Shown here one piece after another: positions 1,150 to 60,733 of a stretch of DNA of 64,000 nucleotides. Numbering within the stretch: position 1 is the first letter of the stretch; each line of letters begins with the position of its first letter. The position numbers and the translations under genes were made by a program. Under the pieces are notes generated by a model. The model was not told where the DNA came from, did no database searches, and worked only from the letters and a program-made list of their open reading frames with translations. Origin of the DNA: Thermoanaerobaculaceae bacterium (lineage in GTDB: Bacteria; Acidobacteriota; Thermoanaerobaculia; Multivoradales; UBA5704); NCBI GenBank assembly GCA_963785165.1, contig CAWAUI010000004.1:192074-256073 (forward strand), read 5' to 3'.

Positions 1150-1322
1150 AGTGAGAGATTACAACAAGGTTCTTGTTGGGTCCATGGGGGGCCGCTCCTG
1201 TTCCCCCAGGCAAGCCCCCCCTGTAACCTTTCCCCCATCCTCAACGTAAGAGGTCCGAAGGCAGTTGACGGACTCGACGACATCGACCTCGAATCGGGGT
1301 CGTTCCAGGAAAGAAGGACCTT

Positions 1323-2540
1323 ATGCGTAAGAGGACATGGGTGATTACTGGTTCCGCGGTGGCGCTGCTGGCCGGCAGTCTCGTGGTCGCCCGCGCCACC
1401 ACGAAGTCCGCCCCCGACGATATTGAATCGCCGTTCCGCCTCGGCACGGTTCAGGCCGAGGATCTCCAGGTCAGCGTCCGCGAGGTGGGGGTCGTGGACC
1501 CCGTGATCAAGGCGGACGTCAAGTCTTCCGTGTCGGGCCGGGTGCTGGGCCTGCGGGTGCGCGAGGGGGACGTGGTGCGGACCGGGCAGGTTCTGGCCGA
1601 GGTGGAGCCCGACGTCAACCAGGCGCAGTCGCTCTCCGACGTCAAGTCCGCCGTCACCCAGGCCGACCTCAAGCTGCGGGACGCCGAGCGCGAGCTGACG
1701 GCGCAGACGGCACTGTACGAGAACGGCCTCATTCCCCGGGAGACGATGCGCAACTATCAGACCTCCCGCGACCTGGCCGCCGAGTCTTTGGCTGCCGCCA
1801 AGTCCCGCTATCAGATCGTGGAGCACCATGGCATTCCGATCTCCGGCGCTTCGGTGACCCAGAACGCGCGGGTGACGTCCCCTATGTCCGGCGTCGTCAT
1901 CACCAAGGGCGTGGAGCTGGGCGAGACGGTGACCTCCGGCGTCTCCTCGTTCAACGAGGGGACGGTGATGTTCACCGTGGCCGATTTGAAGTCGCTCATC
2001 ATCCGCGTCAACCTGAACGAGGTGGACATCGCCAAGGTGCGCGTGGGCCAGCCGGTGCGTGTCACGCTCGACGCCTATCCCCAGAAGGTCTTCGAGGGCA
2101 AGGTGCATTTCGTGGCCCCGGCCGCCAAGGTGGTGGAGAAGATCAAGGTGTTCGAGATCGAAGTGGCGCTCGACAAGCTCGACGAGTCGTTCCGCACGGG
2201 CATGAGCGCCAACGTCGAGATCCTCGGCGAACGGCGGGCGAGCGCGCTGTCGATCCCCCTCGAAGCCCTTCAGCGGCGTGAGGGCAAGACCGTGGTCTAC
2301 CGTCTGAAGCGCAACCTGCCCACCGAGGAGATCGACGAGGCGCGCGAGGCTCTGGAAGGCCGCAGCAAGTTCGTCTGGCTCTCCGAGAATTGGAAAGATT
2401 ATTTCGAGCCGGTCCCCGTGAACGCCGGGGTCGCCACCCTGGAGCGGGTCGAGATCATGACCGGCCTGCGTCCGGGCGATGAGGTGGCGCTCGAAGACGT
2501 GACGCGCAAGAAGGTCGAGAAGGACGACGAGAACAACTAG
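1323..2540 (+). CDS. Efflux periplasmic adaptor subunit (HlyD/MacA family)
   Basis: 405 aa. N-terminal membrane anchor, lipoyl-like hairpin (VSGRVLGLRVREGDVVRTGQVLAEVEP) and a coiled-coil segment. First gene of an adaptor-ATPase-permease-permease operon. Confidence 0.85.
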   Translation: MRKRTWVITGSAVALLAGSLVVARATTKSAPDDIESPFRLGTVQAEDLQVSVREVGVVDPVIKADVKSSVSGRVLGLRVREGDVVRTGQVLAEVEPDVNQAQSLSDVKSAVTQADLKLRDAERELTAQTALYENGLIPRETMRNYQTSRDLAAESLAAAKSRYQIVEHHGIPISGASVTQNARVTSPMSGVVITKGVELGETVTSGVSSFNEGTVMFTVADLKSLIIRVNLNEVDIAKVRVGQPVRVTLDAYPQKVFEGKVHFVAPAAKVVEKIKVFEIEVALDKLDESFRTGMSANVEILGERRASALSIPLEALQRREGKTVVYRLKRNLPTEEIDEAREALEGRSKFVWLSENWKDYFEPVPVNAGVATLERVEIMTGLRPGDEVALEDVTRKKVEKDDENN

Positions 2541-2573
2541 CGAGCCCGCTGGAAAAGAAGCGGAGAACCAGCC

Positions 2574-3260
2574 ATGCGAATCATCGAAACCAGGGGCCTC
2601 GACAAGGTCTACGGCACGGGGGGCAACGCGGTCCATGCCCTGCGCGGCGTCGATCTGAGCGTCGAGCGCGGCGAGCTCGTGGCCTTGATCGGCCCTTCGG
2701 GCTCCGGCAAGAGCACGCTGATGTCCATCCTCGGCTGCCTCGACGTGCCGACCGGCGGCACCTACGCGCTCGACGGCCTCCAGGTCGAAAAGCTTTCGGG
2801 CGCCGACCTGGCGGCCATCCGCAACGAAAAGATCGGGTTCGTCTTCCAGCAGTACAACCTGCTGCCCAAGGCGACCATTCTGAGAAACGTCGAGCTGCCC
2901 ATGCTCTACGCCGGCGTGTCCCGCAAGGAGCGCCGGCAGCGGGCCCTCGAATTGCTCGAGCGGGTGGGCATTCCCGACAAGGCCAACACCCTGCCCGGCG
3001 CGCTCTCCGGCGGCCAGCGCCAGCGGGTGGCCATCGCCCGTGCCCTCGCCAACCGGCCGGCCCTGCTGCTCGCCGACGAGCCCACGGGCGCCCTCGACTC
3101 GAAGACCGGCCAGGAGGTGCTCGGCCTGTTCCGCGAGCTGCACGCCCAGGGGAACACCGTGCTGCTGGTGACCCATGACCCGGCCGTCGCCGCCCTGGCG
3201 GAGCGCCGCGTGGAGATGCGCGACGGCCTCCTCTACCTGGAAGAGGAGATGGCGGCATGA
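2574..3260 (+). CDS. ABC transporter ATP-binding protein (MacB/LolD-type)
   Basis: Walker [10 protein letters not shown], signature [15 protein letters not shown], Walker [14 protein letters not shown]-loop VTHD. Confidence 0.92.
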
Positions 3261-4511
3261 GCTCCAGCGGCGCCTTCCGCGAGCGGCTGCTCGAAGCCTG
3301 GATCGAGCTGCGGAGCAACCCCGGCCGCTCCGTCCTCCAGGCCCTGGGAGTCATGCTGGGCGTCGCGTCCGTGCTCGGCGGCTTCTCGATTTCCGACAGC
3401 CAGCGGCGCCAGTCCGACCGCCTGTTCGACCGCATCGGCGGCATCGACAAGGTCAACATCCTGCCCAGCGACACCGCCTGGCAGGGCACGCCGAGCGCCC
3501 TGCGGAACGCCAATCTCGGGCTTCGGCTGGACGACGCCGTCGGAGGTGGCAGCATGGCCTCCGCCAAGGGTGTCAACGCCACCAGCGTGCTGCGGGAGGC
3601 CCGGGTGCGGGTCCGTTCGGAGTTCGCCGATCAGGAGCGCGAGGTCTCCGGCATCGGTGCCGACTATTCGGCCATGAACGGCTACGAGATCGAGCAGGGG
3701 CGTGGCTTCTCGGCTCACGACTTCTCGGCCGGCGCTCCGGTCGCCGTGCTGGGCTCCCAGGCGGCGAGCGTCTTCTTCCCCACGGGCGACATCGTGGGCA
3801 AGCCCATCCGCATCGGCGACGTGCCGGTGACCGTGATCGGTGTCTACAGCGAGAAAACCTTTCGGTTCCGCGAGGGGCAGCAGAACATGTTCGCCTGGCG
3901 CAACCGCATCGTGGCCGTGCCTTCCCTCCTGGTGGCCGCGCGCATGGAGGGCGACGACTACCACCGCCTGGACCGCGTCACCTTCCGCATTCCGGATCTC
4001 GAATCCATGGCGGACTTCACCAAGGAGCTCTCTTCGCTGGTGGCCACCAACCACCGGCTTCAGGAAGACTTCCGCATCGACGACGTCTACAAGCGCATGG
4101 AGCGGCGGCGGAGCCAGGGGGACGTCTACAACATCGTCTTCATGCTTTCCGGCATCCTTGCCCTCATCGGCGGCGGCATGGTCAACGTCAACATCCAGCT
4201 CGCCTCGCTCAAGGAGCGGGTGCGCGAGGTGGGCGTCAAAATGGCCATCGGCGCCTCCGGCCGCGAGATCTTCAAATCGTTCATGACCGAGGCGCTGCTG
4301 CTCACCTTGCTGGGCGCCGCCGCGGGTTATGTGATCGGTATCGCCTTCGCCTGGGTGATCACCAAGTCGATCGGCGTGCCCATGGCGATCGCACCCCTGA
4401 GCTTTATCTGGGCCACGGGCTCTGGCCGTCGTCTTCGGCTTCCTGTTCGCCCTCTACCCGGCCGCCAAGGCCAGCCGGCAGTCGCCGATGGAGGCGCTGC
4501 GCTATGAATGA
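3257..4511 (+). CDS. ABC transporter permease (MacB/FtsX family), apparent frameshift near 4410-4420
   Basis: Start overlaps the ATPase stop. MacB periplasmic-core and FtsX regions present. The conserved C-terminus LAVVFGFLFALYPAAKASRQSPMEALRYE* lies in a different frame and ends at 4511. Confidence 0.8.
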
Positions 4512-5836
4512 CACCGCGATTGACACCGCGATCTTGACCCCGTCTCCCATGGCGTCGACCCCTGCGGTGACCACGGCGGGAATCCCGCGCCGCCGCCGCA
4601 GCCTGGGCAATCGCCTCTCCCTGGTCTGGGAGGTCGTCACCGGCGGTCTGATCGAATTGTGGGCGCACAAGCTGCGCTCGCTGCTCACCCTGACACTCCT
4701 CATGCTCGGCGTCTTCGCCCTGGTGGTGATGACCTCCGTGCTCGACGGCGTCAAGGACAAGGTTTCCACCGGTTTCGCCGGCATGAGCTGGGACGGCACG
4801 CTCGTCCTCGTCCCCCGCCCGCCCAAGACCTCCGAGCAGCAGAAGCGCTTCGCCATGAGCACCGGCCTGCGCTACGAAGACCTTGTGCGCATCGCGGCTC
4901 CGCACCCTCAGGTGCTTGGGATTCTCCCCCCGCGCGACCCGGCGGAGCGTGGTCCAGGTCTCCGGCGGCGCCGAGCAGATCTACGTCACCGGCGTCACCT
5001 CCGAGTACTCGTACCTCATGGACCGCCCCGTGGGCCTCGGCCGCGGCATCACCGAGGACGACCAGCGCCGCCACTCGGCGGTGGCCGTGGTGGGCGCCAC
5101 CCTCGCCTCCAAGCTCTTCGGCGGCAGCGACCCCGTGGGGCGCGACTTGGTGATCGAGGGCGTGCCGTACCGCATCGTGGGAGTGCTGGCCGGCGGGCAG
5201 ATCTTCAACGAAGAGCTGTGGCAGGACTCCAATGGCGTGCTCCTGCCGCTCGAAACCTACATGGACCGGCTGGACGCGGACCATCAGCTCACCCTGGTCA
5301 CCGTGAAGCTCAAGTCCACCCGCGATCTGGACGAGGTCTCCGCCGCCATGCTCGCCCGCGCCCGGCAGGCCCATCACGGCATCGAGGACGTGGAGGTGAA
5401 GGATCTGGACGCCGAGCTTGCGCGTGCCTACCAGGACTTCGACAGCCAGATGCACGGCTGGAGCGTGGTGCTTCTCAGCCTCGCCGGCACGGTGCTCCTG
5501 GTGGGCGGCGTGGGCGTGTTGTCCGTGATGCTGATCTCCTTCTCCGACCGGCGCTACGAGATCGGCCTGCGCAAGGCGATCGGCGCCAACGACGGCCAGA
5601 TCCTCACCCAGTTCCTGCTCGAAGCCGTGGTCCTGGCCGCCATCGGAGCCTCGATCGGCACCCTGGCCGGCAGCGCCCTCTGCCGCGCCCTTTCCGACAA
5701 GTTCCCCTGGGGCCTGGTGGTCAACCCCTACGGCCTCGCCGCCGCCTGGATGATCGCTCTCCTCCTCGCCGTCACCTTCGGCCTTTACCCGGCGATCCGG
5801 GCGGCCCGGCTGTCGCCGATGGAGGCGATGCGGTAG
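4504..5836 (+). CDS. Second ABC transporter permease (MacB/FtsX family), apparent frameshift at the C6 run near 4925-4930
   Basis: ATG 4504 overlaps the upstream stop. The N-terminal part (…LIELWAHKLRSLLTLTLLMLGVFALVV…) continues in ORF 4883..5836, which ends FGLYPAIRAARLSPMEAMR*. Confidence 0.8.
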
Positions 5837-5888
5837 GGGAGAGCGCTGCGTGGTATCATGGCGAACCTTTAAATAAGGAGGTTCGCCC

Positions 5889-9787: not shown

Positions 9788-10177
9788 ATGAAATACCTAT
9801 GCCTGGCCTACGGTGCAGAAGAGAAGATGAATGCGTTGTCCAAAGAGGAAATGGATTCCCTCATCGGCAAATGCCGGACGTACGATCAGGAGCTTCAGAA
9901 GTCTGGCCACTTGGTCTCAGGGATGAGCCTCGGTTGGGGATCCACGATCCTGCGGCTGCGCAACGGCAAGCTCTCCGTGACGGATGGCCCCTATTCGGAG
10001 ACCAAGGAAGTGGTGGGTGGGCTGGTCGTGATCGAGGCGCGGGATCTGAACGAAGCGATTCAGGTGGCTTCGCTCCATCCGGCGGCACGGATGGGGGAGG
10101 ACATCGGGTGGGGGATCGAGCTGCGGCCCATCGAGGAGTTTCCGATCTGCAAGCCGAAGCCGGCGGACGCGGAGTAA
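9788..10177 (+). CDS. YciI (YCII/DGPF) family protein
   Basis: 129 aa. MKYLCLAYG...DGPYSETKEVVGGLVVIEARDLNEAIQVAS is typical of the YCII domain. Immediately upstream of the sigma-factor gene, which is a frequent pairing. Confidence 0.8.
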   Translation: MKYLCLAYGAEEKMNALSKEEMDSLIGKCRTYDQELQKSGHLVSGMSLGWGSTILRLRNGKLSVTDGPYSETKEVVGGLVVIEARDLNEAIQVASLHPAARMGEDIGWGIELRPIEEFPICKPKPADAE

Positions 10178-18137: not shown

Positions 18138-20981
18138 CTAGGATCGGCGCAGCAGGACACTGATCTGCTGGATGAGCGCTTCGCCGGCCGCGATCCAGGT
18201 GCCCACCTCGACGGCTGTCGCCCCCAGGAGGATCTCAGACCCGTCGCGCAGAGTGCGGACGAGCGGGAGATGAGTTGGCAGGTAGGCCTCGATCCAGGCG
18301 TTGGGGAGTTGCAAGGATTCCGGCGGGTTGAATCCGTCCATCGCTGCCCTGGCTTGGAGGCTGAGCTCGACGCCTTCGCGCAAGGAGGGGAGGGCCTCGA
18401 CAGGGAAACCGCCTCCGGAAAGCACCGCCGCCATTTTGATCTTCCGCTCGGAGCGTCCCAGGAGGTCTCGCGCTTCGGCGAGACGCCGTTCCCGCACGGC
18501 ATCTCTTTCCTGATCGAGGAGGGGATCGAGGGCGGTGGAACGGTGCAGGCGACGGCCGCCGGAAGTGAATTGGAGCACTCCCATTTGGACCAAGCGCTCG
18601 ATGGCTTGGAATGCCGCACGGTCAATCAACTCCAACGCCGGTGCGGGTCCGGTGAGGTGATTCTGCAAGGCCGTTTCGAGGGCCATCCGGTCAGCACTGC
18701 CCTCCACGACGGCGAGGAGGGTCTCTCGGCCGTCCAGAGCCGTGCACACTTCGAGCTCCAGCAGGCGATCCCCCAGGACGGGGAGCAAGGCGCTGGCGAG
18801 GGGATCGGTGGACACGGTTGGGGATTGGGCCTCGGCACCTGTCAGGGGGGCGGCTTTAGAGGCGGTGAGGCCGGTCAAGGCTTCGAGCCTCTGCATGAGG
18901 GCCTTGCGGCCGGAGGGGAGAGGCAGGTTGGAGAGGTCGCCCCGGAGGTCGAGGACGCTGTCGGCGAGGGCCTGCTTGCCGGCGAGGACCGAGATCATCC
19001 GGTGCTCGATGCTGTCTTCGGTCACGAGATGGAGCACCCGGACGGGCCGCGTCTGGTGCTTGCGCCAGGCACGGGCGATCCGTTGCTCCAGGCGTGCCGG
19101 GTTCCACGGCAGGTCGAGGTTGATCACCACGCTTGCGGCCTGGAGGTTCAGCCCCACGCTGCCGGAATCGGTGGAGAGGAAGAGGCGGCAGCCGGGGTCT
19201 TCCTTGAAGCGGCGGATCTCGCCGCGGCGCTTCATGGTGGGCACGGAGCCGGTATGCCAGGCGAAGCCGGCCTCCATCTCCTGGACGGCTTCGCGGACCA
19301 GCTCCAGCATCCGCTCCCATTCCGAGAAGACCAGGATCTTGGTGCCGGGCTCGGCCAGAGTTTCTGCGAGGATCTCCTTGAGCTCGGCGAGCTTGGGACA
19401 GACCCGGCATTCCGAATCGAGGATGTAGGGGGTGTCGCAGATCATCCGCATGCAGGAGAGCCAGCGCTGGAGCTGGTCCATCTCGTCAGGGGTCAGGGGC
19501 CGCCGCTGTGCCTGGGCGATGAGCTGGGCGACCTTTCTCTCGTAATCGGCGTAGCGGGCGAGCTGCTCGGTCTCCATGGGGACGAAGTAGTGCTTGTCCG
19601 TGCGGCCGGGGAGCTGCCCCTCGACCTCGTCCTTGCGGCGGCGCAGGAGGACCGGCGCCACACGGCGGTGGAGCTCGCCGAGGTTCTTGTAACCGGCGGC
19701 CCGTCCGCGCTCGTCGAGCTCGTAGAAGTCGCGGTTGAAACGGAAGAGTGGGCCGAGCAGGCCTGGGTCGAGGAACTGGACGATGGAGTAGAGCTCGTCA
19801 ATGCGGTTCTCAATGGGCGTGCCGGTGAGGACGAAGGCATAGGGGCTGCGCAGGCGCTTGACGGCCCGGGCCGTCTGGCTCTGCCAGTTCTTGATCCGCT
19901 GCGCCTCGTCGAGGATGATCACGTCCGGGGCGAGGCGCTGCTGTACGTCGTCGCCATCATAGAGAATCTGCTCGTAGTTCATGACGTAGAAGAAGGCCCC
20001 GGGACCCTCTCCCCCTTGATATTGGCGCAGGCGCTGTGCGCGGGGACCGAAGATGAGGCGCACCGGCAGGTCGGTGAAGCGGGCGATCTGCTCCTCCCAC
20101 TCGCCCTTGAGCGACGCCGGGCAGACGATCAGGACGCGCTCGACGCCGCGCAGCTTCTGGAGCAGGGCGCAGGCCGCGATGGCCTGGACGGTCTTGCCGA
20201 GGCCCATCTCATCCGCCAGCAGAGCCCGCTCGGTGAAAGCCAGATGCAGCATGCCCTCGCGCTGGTACGGGTAGAGGGGGAGCTTGACCACGTCCAGGGT
20301 CTCGCGACCGGCTTCGACATCGGTCAGGAAGCGCTCGCGGGCAGCCGTCCGGGCCGCCCGGCGGCTCTCTTCTTCCACCCACGGCAGGAGATGGCGGGAG
20401 AGCCGGATCGTCCCGCGGGTCCGCGCCGGTGCGGCGGTGAGGGCTCGGGCCAGGTCCGGCAGGCGGTTCAAGGGATTGCCGCGCAACGAGCCGTCCGAGG
20501 CGAAGAAGCGCTCCACCAGGGCGAAGGCCGCCGAGCGGCGGGCTCCCGCTGGCCACTGAGCCCTCACCTCGGGGTGTTCGCCGTCGCGGCGGAGGAAGAC
20601 CTCGATCCGCTCGCTCTCCTTCTTTGACGTTTTCCCCGGCCGGCTCCGGGCCAATACGGCCTCGACATGCTTGCAGGTGCCGAGGCCGTTCACTTGATAA
20701 TCCGGGCATCCGCAGGAGTTGTCGCGGCGGGAGAGGGAACGGATCTCCACCTCGTAAGCTCCTCCGGTCTCCGAACCCACGCGGAACGTCCCGAAGACAG
20801 GATGGGCGGGCTCGGTCGCCTCAACCGTGAGGGGCTCGGTGGCGGCCCGCTGCCGGCGGCGCTCGATCTCCTCCTCGTCAGTGGTCCGCCAACCCTGGAT
20901 CTTGAGCGGACGGGTGGCTGGTTTCTTTGCCTTGCCGGCGCTGCTCCGTAGCGGCTTGGGGTCGGTAAATGCCTGGCTCAT
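18138..20981 (-). CDS. SNF2-family helicase with N-terminal SWIM zinc finger
   Basis: 947 aa, intact. SWIM CGCPDYQVNGLGTCKHVEAVL; motif I DEMGLGKT; motif II ILDEAQRIKN; helicase-C (GSVGLNLQAASVVINLDLPWNPARLEQRIARAWR); ~300-aa C-terminal region of unknown function. Confidence 0.9.
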   Translation of the reverse strand: MSQAFTDPKPLRSSAGKAKKPATRPLKIQGWRTTDEEEIERRRQRAATEPLTVEATEPAHPVFGTFRVGSETGGAYEVEIRSLSRRDNSCGCPDYQVNGLGTCKHVEAVLARSRPGKTSKKESERIEVFLRRDGEHPEVRAQWPAGARRSAAFALVERFFASDGSLRGNPLNRLPDLARALTAAPARTRGTIRLSRHLLPWVEEESRRAARTAARERFLTDVEAGRETLDVVKLPLYPYQREGMLHLAFTERALLADEMGLGKTVQAIAACALLQKLRGVERVLIVCPASLKGEWEEQIARFTDLPVRLIFGPRAQRLRQYQGGEGPGAFFYVMNYEQILYDGDDVQQRLAPDVIILDEAQRIKNWQSQTARAVKRLRSPYAFVLTGTPIENRIDELYSIVQFLDPGLLGPLFRFNRDFYELDERGRAAGYKNLGELHRRVAPVLLRRRKDEVEGQLPGRTDKHYFVPMETEQLARYADYERKVAQLIAQAQRRPLTPDEMDQLQRWLSCMRMICDTPYILDSECRVCPKLAELKEILAETLAEPGTKILVFSEWERMLELVREAVQEMEAGFAWHTGSVPTMKRRGEIRRFKEDPGCRLFLSTDSGSVGLNLQAASVVINLDLPWNPARLEQRIARAWRKHQTRPVRVLHLVTEDSIEHRMISVLAGKQALADSVLDLRGDLSNLPLPSGRKALMQRLEALTGLTASKAAPLTGAEAQSPTVSTDPLASALLPVLGDRLLELEVCTALDGRETLLAVVEGSADRMALETALQNHLTGPAPALELIDRAAFQAIERLVQMGVLQFTSGGRRLHRSTALDPLLDQERDAVRERRLAEARDLLGRSERKIKMAAVLSGGGFPVEALPSLREGVELSLQARAAMDGFNPPESLQLPNAWIEAYLPTHLPLVRTLRDGSEILLGATAVEVGTWIAAGEALIQQISVLLRRS

Positions 20982-22643: not shown

Positions 22644-22886
22644 CCATACACATTTTTTCCGCCGCGGGGTGTATGGCGGCGAAAACCGGAGGGTGGGCGG
22701 GAGCCGCCGACCGGTCGGCGGCAAAGCACGACCGGTCGTGCGCGGAGGCCGTACACACGGCGGCGGAAAAATTGTGTACCGCGGCAGCCGCGCGGGGTGC
22801 GGTGGCTCGTGCCGTACACATTTTCGCCCGCAACGGGTGTACGGCGGCGGAATCCTTACACCCGTTGCGGGCGAAAATGTGTACGG
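22644..22886. repeat. Four hairpin-capable ~33-38-bp units arranged as two inverted pairs
   Basis: U1 22644-22676 CCATACACA-T6CCGCCGCGGGG-TGTATGG. U2 22749-22782 is approximately the reverse complement of U1. U3 (22812-22841) and U4 (22857-22886) form a perfect 30-bp inverted repeat, CCGTACACATTTTCGCCCGCAACGGGTGTA / TACACCCGTTGCGGGCGAAAATGTGTACGG, with a 15-nt spacer. Confidence 0.85.
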
Positions 22887-23007
22887 CGGCCTGGTCGCCG
22901 CCGCCTTCGGCATCAAGGTCTCCGTGGTCTCGGGAGGCCTCCTCTGCGTCGTGGGGTCCTCTGCGCCCTCCTCCTGCCGCGCTTCGTGGCCTACGACGCG
23001 CGGGCGA

Positions 23008-23127: not shown

Positions 23128-23245
23128 TTTCGGCTCGCAGGCTTCGTTTTGTCTCAGTACTGCTCAGCTAAGCACCCTCTGGATTGAGGGCTCTGTCGAT
23201 CACGCCCGCAGACAACACGTTCGCAGCACCGCGGAGGAGGCAAGC

Positions 23246-25307
23246 ATGCACATCCAGAAGCTGGACCCTGAGAAATTCTTCGAGGCCTATGGCATCCAGA
23301 TCCAACTGGTCTATCCCTGGGAAGGGGTGGTCGAGCCGCCGTTCGGAGCGGCCTGGTCCGTGGTCGAGCCGGGAGGGGAGACCAAGCATCATGCCCATCA
23401 GGAAGGAGAGACCTTCTTCTTTCTCAAGGGGCAAGGGCGGGTCAGCATCGGGGGCGACACCCGGGACGTGACGGCGGGGGACGTCGTCTTCCAGCCTCCG
23501 TTTCACGAGCACACCCTGGTCAACACCTCCGAGACCGAGGATCTTTTCTTCCTCTCCTGCTGGTGGGAAGACCTGAAGCTGTGGACCGGCGCCAAGGAGG
23601 GTGAAGCCAGGCCGGCCAAGCGCCCCGCGCGCACCATGGTCTGCGCCGCGCCCCCCACGGCCAACGGCGACCTCCACGTGGGGCACCTCTCCGGTCCCTA
23701 CGTGGCGGGCGACGTCCACACCCGCTACCTGCGCCTGCGGGGCGTGGACGCCCGCTACATCTTCGGCACGGACGACAACTGGAGCTACGTGGTGACCAAC
23801 GGCGTCCGCCTGGGATTGGGACCCCAGGACGCCGCCGACAAGGTGGCGGGGGAGATCGAGGCCACCTTGAAGGCCGCCGGCGTGGAGATGGACGAGCTCG
23901 TCCGCCCCAACACCTCGCCCCACCACGTCCGCATGACCCAGGAATTCTTCCGGCGCCTCTACGACGGCGGGCACCTGGTGGCCCGCGAGGTGGCCTCGCC
24001 CTGGTGCGACACCTGCGACCGCTACCTCTACGAGGCCTACATCCGCGGGCGCTGCCCCCACTGCGGTGCCCCCTCCGGCGGCTGCATCTGCGAGGACTGC
24101 GGCCGTCCCAACGACTGCGCGGACCTGCTGGACGCCGTCTGTACCCAGTGCGGCCAGGCGCCCTCGCGGCGTACCTTCACGCGCCTCTTCCTCCCTCTCG
24201 CCCGCTGGGAAAACGAGCTGCGCGAATTCCACCGCGCGACCCCCATGGACACCAATCTGCGCACCCTCTGCGAGCAGATCCTGGCCCTGGGCCTGCCGGA
24301 GATGACGGTGACCCACGTCACCGACTGGGGGATCCCGGTGCCCGTCGAAGGCTTCGAGAACCAGCGCATCTCCGTCCTCTGCGAGCTGGCGCCCATGTAC
24401 TTCGCCTACGCTCAGCATTTGGGGGACTGGGAGGCCTGGTTCAAGGCGGACGACGCCGAGATGGTCCACTTCATCGGCTTCGACAACGCCTTCCACTACG
24501 CCATCTTTCTGCCCGCCATGTACATGGCTTACGGCCAGGGCGTCAAGCAGGCCTCGGCCTTCGTCAGCAACCAGTTCTACCGGCTGGACGACCTCAAGTT
24601 CTCCACCAGCCGGCTCCATGCCATCTGGGGGCGCGAGCTGCTGGCCGACGTCTCCCCGGACGTCGCCCGCTTCTATCTCGCCTACACCCGGCCGGAAGTG
24701 GAAAGCACGAGCTTCACCCTCGCCGAATTCGCCGGCACCTGCGACAAGGAGCTGGGCGGAAACTGGCAATCCTGGCTCTCGGCCCTGGGAGACAAGATCC
24801 GCCGCGATTTCGGCGGCAAAGTCCCCGCCACCGGCGACTGGACGGACGCCCAGCGCCGCTTCTACCACCGCCTGGAGACCCTCCTCGCCGAGGCCGCGGA
24901 AGCCTACGAGGCTCCCACCTTCTGCCTGCAAAAGGCGTCGAGAGTGCTCTGTGAGATGGTGCGCGAAGCGCGCTTCTTCGGCAAGTCGCAGGAAGGCTGG
25001 CGCCGAGTCCCCACCCGTTCCGAAGAACGCCGCACCGTGGCCGCCCTGGAGCTGCCTGGCCGCCAAGCTCCTGGCGATCACGGCCTCGCCCATCCTCCCC
25101 AATTTCGCCGCCCAGCTCTGGAAAGGGCTCGGTTACGACACCCCGGTCACCGGCGAGCGCTGGGAAGAGACCCCCACCTGGGTCCCTGCCGGGCAGGCGA
25201 TCGGCACTCTGGGGGGGCCGTACTTCCAGAACGTGGGGGAGGCCCTGCGGCGCTCCGGCAAGCTGGCTGCGCCGAAGGCCGCGGCGGAGGAGCTGGTGAG
25301 CGTGTAG
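23246..25307 (+). CDS. Cupin domain fused to a methionyl-tRNA-synthetase-like class I aminoacyl-tRNA synthetase, apparent frameshift near 25050
   Basis: SD GGAGGAGG. Residues 1-~115 form a cupin barrel (GETKHHAHQEGETFFFLKGQGRVSIGGDTRDVTAGDVVFQPPFHEH). Then the HIGH region PPTANGDLHVGHLSGPY, a MetRS Zn knuckle CPHCG...CEDCG...CTQCG, and the KMSKS variant KFSTSR. The C-terminus continues in ORF 24618..25307. Confidence 0.75.
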
Positions 25308-25553
25308 CACAAGGGGGTGTCGATCGTGCTGTTCCTGGGGCTGTGCGTGTACGTGTGGCGGGGGTCGGTGAAAAGGGCGAAGGCGTAGAAGGAGGAGAAG
25401 CGGGCCTTTCGCGGGCCGGACGTCTTCTGGGTGGGAGGCATCGATCCGTACCGGAAGCGCGAGGCGTGGATCGCCCACGACGGAGAAGCGGCGCCAGACG
25501 TCCCACAGGCGGGGCGGCAGGGCCCCGTCAAAGTCGTGCTTCGGTCATCTCCG

Positions 25554-27532
25554 CTACATCCGCCGGACATGCGCAACGGCCTGGGGAGTACGGCCCAGCT
25601 TCCGGGCGATTTCGTCGTCCGGAGCCGTCCCGACGAGGGCGAAGCTCTTCGGGTGTCCACCTCCGTTTCTCCTGAAAGGGTGGAATTCCATGCCGCCTGC
25701 GCTTCTTGTTCACGACGCTCTCCGCGATCCCGAGCTCGCGCGCGATCCGGCGATCGGGCTCCCGCCCGAGGCGGGCGACGAAGCTCGGGAGTCCAGCGCC
25801 GGGGCCGTTCGATACCAAGCTTCTCGCGCAGAACGCGAATGGTCGTGGGAGACAGGCCCGTCCTCCGCTTCACCTCTTTGCTCTTCTCGTGCAGCAACTC
25901 GATGAGAGCGGGAGTTGGAACTATGGCCCCGTACCTGCCCCCCGGGCGGATGCCGAGCGCGGCGCGCTTGCGCTGGACGCTGCTCACCGAAAATCCGGCG
26001 CGGCGCGCCAGCTCGCGGTCGGTGACCTTGCCCAGGAGCGCGAGCAACGCCTCGGTCCACTGGTAAACAGGGCGCGGCGGCCGGGACGCGGCAATCCCGA
26101 GTTGCTTCCGTTTCGTCGACACCGTGGCCTTGCGGATCCCGAGCTCCTCGGCGACCTCCGCATCCGACATCGTTCCGAGCAACGCGAGCTCCTGGGGCGT
26201 CCACTCGTCAGCTCCTGCATAGCGTCGTTTCGGATGGAACGGCGGGATCCCGAGGAGCTGTCGCTTGTAGCGGACGCTGGAGCCGTGGATGCCCAACTTT
26301 TTGGCGACGACCGTATCGCTGGCGGTGCCAAGACGCCGGATCATCTTTGGGGTCCATTCGATCGGCTCGACGGGCGGCCGGAAGGCTCTGATCCCGCGCC
26401 GCTTCCGTTCCCTGGCGACCGCCTCTGCCGAAATCCCGGCGAGGCTTGCGATCTCGCGGTCGGGGAGCTTGCCCAGCCGGGCGACAAGCTTCTGGGGCCA
26501 CCGGAACCGCTCCTTCACCGGAGCGCGCTTGACGGCCATGCGCGGTTTCCCGCGGCGAGCCCGGCGGAACGCTGGAATGCCCAGGGACTTCCGCTTTTTG
26601 CGGATCACATTTTCCGAGACCCCGAAACGGTTCGCGATGCTCCGGTCGGTTTCCTGACCGAGGCGGGCAAGGAGCTTGGGGCTCCAGCGGCGGCGCAAGT
26701 CGATACCCTGTTTCCGGCGCAGATCGGCGATCGTCTTGTGGCTGAGACCGGTCAGTCGCTGGACCTCGATGGCCGGCCGGTGGAGCAGCTCGATCAGCTC
26801 CGGCGTCGCAACCACCGCCCCGGCGGGAACCACGCTGGGGATGCCGAGCCGAGACCGCTTCGCTCTGACGGTGTTGCCAGAAATGCTGAAGTGCTCCGCC
26901 ACCTGCGAGTCAGGGACCTCGCCCAGGAGCACGACCATCTCCTCCGTCCATTCGATCGGGAGCGTCGGCGGCTTGAAGGAAGGAATCTTCAGGACCTGGC
27001 GTTTCAACACGGCAGAGGCGACACTGATCCCGAGCTGTTCGGCGACCTTTCGGTCGGGCATGGTGCCGAGCAGAGCCAGGTCTTCCGGCTCCCAGGGAAT
27101 GGCCGACTCGACGGCACAGGAGGGCGGTGGGGCATACGGAGGAAGCCCGAGGAGCTCGCGCTTGCGCCGGATGGTGGTCCGGGAGAGCCCCAGCTCCCGG
27201 CCGACCACGCCATCGCTTTCCTCCCCGATCAGGGAGATCATCTCCGGTGTCCATTCGACGGGACCGCGCGGCGGCCGAAATGACTCGATTCCGCGCCGCC
27301 GACGTTCTCTGGTCACCGTCCCGGAGCTGATGCCGGCCCGCCGTGCGAGCTTTTCGTCGGAGACCTTCCCGAGCAGGGACGCCAGCTCGTCCGTCCACGA
27401 AACCATGGCCCGGGTCGAACGCATCGTGGACGCCGGGACGCGCTCGACGGGCAGCGGTGGCGCGACGGAGCGGCGCTTCAGTGGCCGAGTTTTTTTCGGC
27501 GGGCGAGACATCGGGTGCAGATCGTATCGCAT
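25554..27532 (-). CDS. Highly basic protein of 13 tandem W-anchored HTH-like modules, two apparent frameshifts (near 25800 and near 25640)
   Basis: Module consensus WTPEx(L/M)xLLGxxxDxx(V/I)AxxLG(I/L)SxxxVxxKRxxLGIPxF, repeated 13 times. Joined from ORFs 25133..27532 and 25528..25818 plus a third frame that ends ...ALVGTAPDDEIARKLGRTPQAVAHVRRM* at 25554. Confidence 0.7.
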
Positions 27533-27588
27533 CTGGGCGCTGCAGCAATTCCCGCGAAAAGAAGCAAAAAACGCCCTTTGATCTCTCT

Positions 27589-60338: not shown

Positions 60339-60469
60339 CCCGGCGGAATTCCCGCGGGTCTCCCCCCTCGCCCCGTCTGACCCGGCGGCGTTGCGCCGTC
60401 ACCCGGTATCGAATCCGCGCCTCCTGGCAGCGCCCGTGCGGTGCTCCCTCCGTTCCCGCGGGTCCGGCC

Positions 60470-60733
60470 CATACAATTTTACGAGTCCCCTATATAGCCG
60501 AGCGTCGTACCAGCGAGGGGAAGACACGCGGGAAGCTTCCCTGAAGGCTCTGCTATATAGTTTTGTGACTCCCCTATATGGCCCGGTGCCGCGTACAGAA
60601 TGGCCCGGTGCCGCGTACAGAAGGGGGAGAGGCGCGGATATATAGTTTTATTGCTCGGCCATATGGGGGCGGCCGCTACCCGTCTTCCCCGGTCACGCGG
60701 CTATATAGCCGAATCGTAAGGCTATATGGCCGC
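60470..60733. repeat. Array of four ~30-bp TATATAG-N13-14-CTATATGG units plus a perfect 22-bp tandem duplication
   Basis: Units near 60470-60499, 60553-60581, 60638-60668 and 60700-60731. TGGCCCGGTGCCGCGTACAGAA x2 at 60579-60622. Lies in a 440-bp convergent intergenic region. Locally AT-rich motifs in a GC-rich genome. Confidence 0.85.

Follow-up and report, generated by a model that had tools for sequence, protein, structure and literature searches.

Gene and product

This report concerns a single gene in a 64,000-nucleotide stretch of DNA (hereafter the window) from a Thermoanaerobaculaceae bacterium. The gene lies on the minus strand, running from 27532 or 27511 down to 25554. In its product, a conserved basic tail precedes 13 modules of about 45 residues each. 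The modules are predicted to resemble helix-turn-helix (HTH) units, and the gene is referred to below as the HTH gene. Its parts are as follows.

25554-27532, minus strand: whole gene. The coding sequence probably starts at ATG 27511 (MSRPPKK...), has 651 codons for amino acids once two single-nucleotide insertions are repaired, and ends with TAG at 25554-25556.
27520-27533, minus strand: upstream motif GATGCGATACGATC. Similarity to the orthologous loci starts about here; the wider contexts differ.
27398-27511, minus strand: N-terminal tail, basic and proline-rich (MSRPPKKTRPLKRR...), conserved in the orthologue alignment. It is predicted to be disordered (AlphaFold2 predicted local distance difference test score, pLDDT, below 50 for residues 1-43).
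26516-27397, minus strand: block A, modules 1-6, at 27254-27397, 27107-27253, 26951-27094, 26807-26950, 26687-26806 (without tryptophan) and 26516-26686.
26513-26563, minus strand: long, basic inter-block linker (RRARRGKPRMAVKRAPVK); AlphaFold2 pLDDT below 50 for segment 324-340.
25660-26500, minus strand: block B, modules 7-12, a copy of block A, at 26357-26500, 26207-26356, 26060-26203, 25916-26059, 25796-25915 (without tryptophan) and 25660-25795.
25557-25659, minus strand: module 13, of a terminal, Myb-like type (WTPEELALVGTAPDDEIARKLGRTPQAVAHVRRM), equivalent to module 7 of the 7-module homologues.
25781-25782, minus strand: frameshift 1, TT in place of the relatives' single T (GAGCT[T]CGTCGCC), from alignment to related contigs.
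25642-25643, minus strand: frameshift 2, TT in place of the relatives' single T (GAGCT[T]CGCCCTC), from the same kind of alignment.

As assembled, the gene is spread over three reading frames. A minus-strand open reading frame (ORF) at 25133-27532 (799 amino acids, ATG at 27532) carries the module frame only down to about 25783. The repeat then resumes in a second frame (ORF 25528-25818) and afterwards in a third (ORF 25554-25691), which ends at the TAG given above. Deleting one T at each frameshift yields ...RRWTPELVARLG... and ...RRWTPEELALVG..., matching the orthologues P0001-P0005. The repaired protein has 658 amino acids if read from the first ATG and 651 if read from ATG 27511. The shorter form is the likely product, since the orthologues begin MSRP.KK, which matches ATG 27511. 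It has an isoelectric point of 11.4, with 133 lysines and arginines against 68 aspartates and glutamates, and a net charge of about +65.

A short sequence, GATG(C/T)GATA(A/C)GATC, is kept 10-20 nucleotides 5' of the start codon at three loci whose contexts are otherwise unrelated: the window (27520-27533, minus strand) and two related contigs, L001 (about 4900-4921) and L003 (about 9980-10000). It may be a promoter or operator, for instance a -10-like element with a very short leader.

Repeat anatomy

Thirteen modules are found by module alignment together with hmmsearch. Their consensus is WTPELxALLGxxxDxxVARxxGISxxxVxxKRxxLGI, and each is followed by a linker rich in proline and arginine. 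The arginine at position 32 is invariant, the lysine at position 31 is present in most modules, and the initial tryptophan in 11 of the 13. The two exceptions, modules 5 and 11, belong to a distinct variant (TPxLIELLH...GLSxxTI..LR.K.GI) and are 60% identical to one another. There are no further copies of the module within the window.

The array is itself a repeat. When modules 1-6 are aligned in register with modules 7-12, they are 49% identical over 282 amino acids with one gap (E = 7e-87), against 34% (E = 1e-24) for the best out-of-register alignment. The DNA of the two six-module blocks is about 64% identical. Modules 1-6 and modules 7-12 both correspond mostly to modules 1-6 of 7-module homologues, and module 13 corresponds mostly to their module 7, so that the protein can be written [1-6][1-6][7]; the mapping is cleanest against the homologue P0013. 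On this comparison of sequences, the order is that of a common 7-module form in which the six-module block has been duplicated.

The preliminary description of this locus had joined three minus-strand ORF pieces into one gene with a basic N-terminal tail. The first proposal is borne out by the way in which removal of one T per site restores the residues of the orthologues, and the second by charge and by the orthologue alignment. The 13-module array, the variant modules 5 and 11 and the consensus had been described correctly in every structural detail, and the six-module super-repeat that was proposed is the one that the in-register alignment recovers.

Predicted fold of the module

When the whole protein is compared with Pfam, HTH_23 scores 42.5 bits against a curated cut-off of 24.6, and the curated cut-offs of HTH_AsnC-type, HTH_17, HTH_28, HTH_24 and Sigma70_r4_2 are passed as well. 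Pfam has no family dedicated to the module, only generic matches from the HTH clan. NCBIfam gives nothing specific for the protein and no nuclease match, and no catalytic domain was found in the scans of these two collections. PADLOC returns weak whole-sequence matches only, to a short HTH model (mad1) and to a homing-endonuclease model, with no single stretch significant.

Among solved structures, the best match to a profile of the module is the RpoN-box domain of sigma-54 (2O8K, E = 0.007). Here isestVrrkRrrlGIppfr is aligned with ARRTVAKYREMLGIPSSR, over 22 residues only.

Structure prediction divides the protein into discrete units. AlphaFold2, supplied with a 30-sequence alignment of the repaired protein, gives 13 separate three-helix units with pLDDT 80-90, linkers below 50 and a predicted template modelling score (pTM) of 0.27. 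A model of one module, built from 111 aligned modules, has a pLDDT of 87.7 and helices at positions 3-8, 14-21 and 25-35. The predicted architecture is thus one of beads on a string, joined by flexible linkers and without a rigid superhelix.

The nearest structures in the Protein Data Bank (PDB), as found by Foldseek, are all HTH DNA binders. For one module they are GerE, NarL, DosR, FapR, DeoR, Fis, RacA and Mos1; for the whole model they are Reb1, sigma factors, Pax and DUX4. A structure search of BFVD gives 24 matches at E <= 1e-3, to phage multi-HTH proteins that include endonucleases.

Taken together, profiles and models support the view that each module is a unit of three helices with an HTH-like fold, the HTH of which would be made up of helices 2 and 3. 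This had already been suggested in the preliminary description, and it holds on three counts: the Pfam cut-offs are exceeded, each module is modelled with three helices, and the Foldseek neighbours are all of HTH type. The resemblance to Myb/SANT and sigma-factor units claimed there is fair as a likeness, the RpoN box being the best solved-structure match. The idea that the modules stack into a superhelix is not supported, given the low pTM and the poorly predicted linkers.

A large family and its fusions

The protein does not stand alone; it is a member of a very large unnamed family. A word-index search recovered 70 relatives. Four of these (P0001-P0004) are 76-79% identical to the window protein and 648-655 amino acids long, one of them coming from a Thermoanaerobaculia metagenome-assembled genome (MAG). 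A fifth, P0005, is 92% identical. At the distant extreme stands a protein of Pseudomonas guariconensis with 934 amino acids and 19 modules. Scanning GTDB genomes with the single protein found one Thermoanaerobaculia MAG only, and a separate homologue search with a 48-residue module profile gave 6 short matches.

To measure the extent of the family, 1.84 billion representative proteins were scored with a profile built from 111 diverse modules. At E <= 1e-3 the matches comprise 14,091 clusters, of which 6,562 remain at E <= 1e-10 and 1,575 at E <= 1e-30. The 199 family proteins inspected carry between 2 and 19 modules. The mode is 7 (56 proteins), counts of 6, 8 and 10 are common, and at least 13 modules, as in the window, is rare. 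Members occur in Thermoanaerobaculia MAGs, on megaplasmids and islands of Pseudomonas, and in phages. Literature searches on multi-HTH, tandem-HTH and HTH-array proteins returned no description of this poly-HTH family.

Some module arrays are fused to other domains. The partners, all of them related to nucleic acids, are a GIY-YIG nuclease (P0063), a superfamily 2 (SF2) helicase (P0060, P0152), a Uma2 nuclease (P0013), a domain resembling the C-terminal domain of the RNA polymerase alpha subunit (alpha-CTD; P0115) and a SAP domain with sigma regions 3/4 (P0010).

Phages and plasmids

In a tblastn search of phage records, Vibrio and Pseudoalteromonas phages match. Phages helene 12B3 (VPBG_00263) and 1.187.O (NVP1187O_128) each encode a homing endonuclease of 333-346 amino acids, in which a GIY-YIG domain is followed by 4-5 modules. 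The module hidden Markov model scores these enzymes at 1e-42 and 4e-40. Their genes adjoin the gene for the terminase large subunit; in one phage of the pair, that terminase gene is in fragments.

Plasmid matches are more numerous. Of 98 plasmid records matched, 88 are from Pseudomonas, and many are several hundred kilobases long. A single plasmid can match in many places, with 15 in pQBR103 (NC_009444.1) and 15 in a P. rhodesiae plasmid, which indicates paralogue expansion of module arrays on megaplasmids. The annotated feature under a match is almost always a "hypothetical protein". The P. guariconensis gene mentioned above lies in an island with integrase, HNH, PLD-like and HEPN genes. A 17-module relative lies on a 271-kb contig (L007, Logan SRR26894869_83) among dozens of small co-directional ORFs, almost none of them Pfam-matched; this contig resembles a jumbo phage or some other large mobile element.

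A further link leads to protein D5 of phage T5. PHROG 323, "transcriptional regulator, D5-like", matches the window protein at E = 3e-47 (162.7 bits) in four stretches, the best of which spans profile positions 94-233 of 319. Weaker PHROG matches are to DNA-binding families and to HNH or homing-endonuclease families. D5 itself matches PHROG 323 at 1e-71, and a D5 protein of a Vibrio phage is among the BFVD matches (E = 1e-4). In the T5 record, D5 is annotated as a DNA-binding protein on which replication and late transcription depend; according to a preprint (PMC13405049), it is an HTH protein and the trigger of a retron.

The sigma-related matches raise the question of whether the array is mainly a protein- or RNA-binding scaffold, such as an adaptor for RNA polymerase or a sigma factor. 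The best solved-structure match would fit this, as would the relatives fused to sigma regions 3/4 or to the alpha-CTD-like domain and the effect of D5 on late transcription. However, the RpoN box is itself a DNA-reading HTH, the nuclease and helicase fusions point to DNA, and the window protein has no other part of sigma-54: no Sigma54 match is listed for it in Pfam or NCBIfam, for the activator-interacting or the core-binding domain. The structure 2O8K is the C-terminal domain of sigma-54 bound to -24 promoter DNA. A scaffold of this kind is accordingly given very little weight.

Proposed mode of DNA binding

The preferred reading is that the protein is a stand-alone multivalent binder of duplex DNA with an architectural or regulatory role, and we consider this reasonably probable as a whole. 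Binding to DNA is inferred from the charge of the protein, from its fold neighbours and from the fusion of related arrays to nucleases or helicases.

In the proposed mechanism, helix 3 of each module (S/T-x-x-T/V-V-x-x-K-R-x-x-L-G-I) would sit in the major groove, while K31/R32 and the basic linkers would follow and hold the DNA backbone. With each helix 3 taking a major groove and the linkers tracking the backbone, one molecule could occupy or bridge about 60-130 bp of duplex DNA. The role might then be to occupy, coat or organise DNA in the manner reported for D5 of phage T5.

How specific such binding would be can be judged from the pattern of substitution. By group of columns, the ratio of nonsynonymous to synonymous substitution (dN/dS) is 0.13-0.16 in buried or conserved scaffold columns, 0.5-0.7 in columns 25, 26, 29, 30 and 33 of helix 3, and 0.6-1.05 at the start of helix 2. 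These five helix-3 columns are the most variable of the module and form the exposed face of the helix on a fixed scaffold. Between orthologues they are also the least conserved positions, with an identity of 0.48-0.54 vs about 0.78 overall. Multivalent binding of modest specificity is favoured because the exposed residues of helix 3 are those least conserved and because the net charge is so high; the base specificity of each module is probably modest.

The same positions can be read in another way. In the main rival explanation, the protein would recognise a single long, ordered DNA site with high sequence specificity, every type of module being assigned to a subsite of its own, much as in the DNA-binding arm of a homing endonuclease. 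Its function might then be to regulate at specific sites, to shield a target site, or to direct a nuclease or helicase that is provided in trans. In favour of it, the most variable columns lie on the exposed face of helix 3, on a fixed scaffold. In the phage GIY-YIG homing endonucleases beside terminase genes, the modules form the DNA-binding part, and arrays are joined to helicases and to the Uma2 nuclease. Moreover, the order of module types is kept in distant homologues. Yet a conserved specific site would not usually go with helix-3 residues that differ most between orthologues, or with a dN/dS of 0.5-0.7 there; nor has a conserved partner gene or a candidate target been found. A specific reader is thus possible, though we think it distinctly less than an even bet.

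A stronger form of this idea is that the whole family is a natural modular DNA-recognition scaffold, in which one module would recognise one short subsite through its variable helix-3 residues, and 4-19 modules would add up to long targets. This is a speculative proposal, to which we attach a low probability.

Several points weigh against the preferred reading. The kept order of the modules and the kinship with homing endonucleases favour ordered, sequence-specific recognition over coating. As to the fold, Pfam matches to single modules are weak (E of 0.01 or worse), with no single strong stretch, and Foldseek has no significant match in the PDB, its best E values being 0.15-0.6. As to the comparison with D5, the link depends on a heterogeneous PHROG profile and one structural match. 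The module profile matches T5 D5 directly only at a marginal level (4.3 bits in hmmsearch; E = 0.01 over 29 columns in hhalign), and the relation is therefore one of profile and fold rather than close homology.

Frameshifts

Both changes of frame fall within the string GAGCTTCG, each being one extra T in GAGCT[T]CG. Alignments of the gene to L001 and L003, to which it is 93% and 82% identical in nucleotides, show exactly these two single-base gaps attributable to the window; the alignment to L001 has one more gap, caused by a surplus C in the C8 run of that contig. Both sites are read through in five orthologue sequences, four of which are complete genes for 648-655 amino acids.

Similar changes are found in other genes of the window. 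L001, a related short-read contig (ENA ERZ27251438 k141_5804609), also has a MacB/RND stretch in common with the window (window 1306-5839, L001 10166-14622; 82-86% nucleotide identity). Compared with it, the window has isolated single-nucleotide insertions at 4417 and 4917, in MacB/FtsX genes. All four insertions seen against L001 duplicate a neighbouring base, as an error-prone assembly would. The cupin-methionyl-tRNA synthetase (MetRS) gene beside the HTH gene shifts frame too, at about 25055 (GAGCTG[C]CTGG), from which a fifth insertion is deduced.

There are no disabling changes in the HTH gene other than the two frameshifts. Its dN/dS against L001 is 0.33 for the whole gene and 0.18 across the 75 codons that follow the first frameshift. 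Since single-nucleotide insertions recur in the MacB/FtsX and MetRS genes, and since purifying selection persists past frameshift 1, the two frameshifts are, on sequence comparison, most likely assembly errors, and the organism itself probably has an intact gene. The assembly behind the window appears prone to indels, so that other split ORFs of the window need caution.

Alternatively, the frameshifts may be genuine and the gene in decay, as the leftover of a mobile-element gene such as a homing endonuclease that has lost its nuclease. A point in favour of decay, and against an intact gene, is that the closest relative is frameshifted as well: L001 and L002 (a Logan assembly from a different run) have one extra C in the C8 run (L001 5446-5453, in the IPPF codons). 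This frameshifted gene is recorded on three contigs, two of which, the ENA and the Logan contig, were read. It may reflect a slippage-prone site or a real frameshift, and because the closest relative has a frameshift of its own, decay within the clade keeps a place among the explanations. The unrelated settings of the orthologues, often near toxin-antitoxin, STAND-NTPase or integrase genes, would also suit a mobile-element remnant. Four intact orthologues, the dN/dS values, the similar lone insertions in neighbouring genes and the lack of further disabling changes all speak for assembly error instead, and decay is improbable.

Two further explanations were considered and rejected. Programmed frameshifting is ruled out because the orthologues are continuous at both sites and the two shifts sum instead of cancelling. 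Systematic miscalling at a GAGCTC methylation motif is ruled out by 48 GAGCTC sites that are intact in the window.

Genomic setting and possible mobility

Upstream of the HTH gene, on the same strand, lies a gene for an M20 peptidase of PepT type, and the cupin-MetRS gene is convergent with it. That these are the neighbours, with no partner gene, had been noted before and is confirmed; the orthologues have no neighbour gene in common, and their neighbourhoods are unrelated. An intrinsic terminator between PepT and the HTH gene is unsupported (fold z-score -0.14; a consensus scan found none in the gap).

On L001, the MacB cluster that is in common with the window stands at another distance from the HTH gene, which also has another orientation. 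The gene itself (window 25550-27534, L001 4899-6882) is more alike than the MacB/RND flank, and the similarity has sharp limits: it begins about 25 nucleotides before the start codon and stops a few bases past the stop codon. From such sequence comparisons, the HTH gene seems to move, or to be exchanged, on its own, and a relocation or recent exchange of this single gene is suggested.

Genes for MacB_PCD/FtsX permeases occur within a few kilobases of the gene in three orthologue contexts (those of P0001, of P0003 on L003, and of L001). Permeases of the MacB/FtsX type are very numerous in Acidobacteria, and their proximity to the orthologues may be coincidence.

Other features of the window were recorded in passing. 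The cupin-MetRS gene (23231-25307, plus strand) has an unusual architecture, its class I methionyl-tRNA synthetase carrying a fused N-terminal cupin domain. Just upstream of it, at 22644-22887, lies a cluster of palindromic elements based on CCGTACACA...TGTGTACGG, among them one inverted-repeat pair with 34-nucleotide arms that are 97% complementary. At 60461-60730, a 37-nucleotide unit with ends of the type CTATATAG...CCATATGG occurs three times at a spacing of 84-85 nucleotides, and 60578-60621 is an exact tandem duplication of 22 nucleotides. The repeat elements at 22644-22887 and 60461-60730 are indeed present, but nothing ties them to the HTH protein, and nothing points to RNA as its target either. 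A gene for an SNF2-family helicase (947 amino acids; 18138-20981, minus strand) is about 5 kb from the HTH gene, with no known link to it.

Significance

DNA binders that carry two to four HTH or Myb-type units in tandem are well known, as is the modular DNA-binding arm of homing endonucleases. Stand-alone arrays of 7-19 units, as a widespread family of bacteria, plasmids and phages, appear not to have been described, named or modelled in Pfam before.

The fold and the general activity are unsurprising. It is the scale of the family, its spread and its reuse as a targeting arm that make it an experimental lead: it comprises thousands of clusters, is enriched on mobile elements and has a unit in common with homing endonucleases. 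Many "hypothetical proteins" of phages and of Pseudomonas megaplasmids would be explained once the targets of the arrays were known, and a new modular DNA-binding scaffold might result. If the proposal of a modular recognition scaffold were true, this would be a third programmable protein system alongside zinc fingers and transcription activator-like effectors (TALEs). Evolution would have joined that scaffold to nucleases (GIY-YIG, Uma2) as well as helicases, besides using it alone. For the window itself the result is more modest, namely one well-supported predicted DNA-binding gene, broken in assembly by probable sequencing errors.

Comparison with known systems

Zinc-finger and TALE arrays. 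These are an analogy only. They too are chains of many small units in which variable residues sit on a constant framework, and their fold is unrelated.

Small HTH domains of LuxR/GerE type. GerE (1FSE), NarL (1JE8) and FapR (4A0X) have the closest folds to a single module, with query-normalised template modelling scores of 0.4-0.6, none of them significant. They differ in occurring once per protein.

Myb/SANT arrays. Myb/SANT proteins consist of tandem units of about 50 residues, each of which places a helix in the major groove. Like the window protein, c-Myb R1-R3 and Reb1 (5EYB) have tryptophan-anchored three-helix units in tandem, and Reb1 is the top Foldseek match to the whole model (E = 0.15). 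Myb units have three spaced tryptophans, whereas the window modules have one, and PF00249 is not among the best 25 of 36 Pfam families for the protein.

Sigma-54. The likeness to the RpoN box (2O8K, 2AHQ) lies in helix 3 and its tail, which resemble ARRTVAKYRExLGIPSS. In sigma-54 the box is present in a single copy at the end of the protein, and the match to the window module is limited to 22 residues.

Protein D5 of phage T5. Like the window protein, D5 has tandem HTH-like units, no enzyme domain and a match to PHROG 323. It differs in having 255 amino acids and about four units, which are longer and more divergent. D5 is an early protein of a lytic phage, whereas the window gene stands among ordinary bacterial genes, with no phage or plasmid genes seen nearby.

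GIY-YIG homing endonucleases. The Vibrio phage enzymes (PHROG 7168) have an N-terminal catalytic domain and terminase neighbours, whereas the window protein lacks a catalytic domain and runs to 13 modules. The phage relatives and P0063 contain PF01541 (GIY-YIG), which is not among the best 25 Pfam families for the window protein. What these enzymes have in common with it is the module itself, of about 45 residues and repeated in tandem, in 4-5 copies in the phages, in the form W-x-x-E-x-x-x-L-L-G-T-x-x-D ... V-x-x-K/R-R-x-x-L-G-I-P-P-F/Y.

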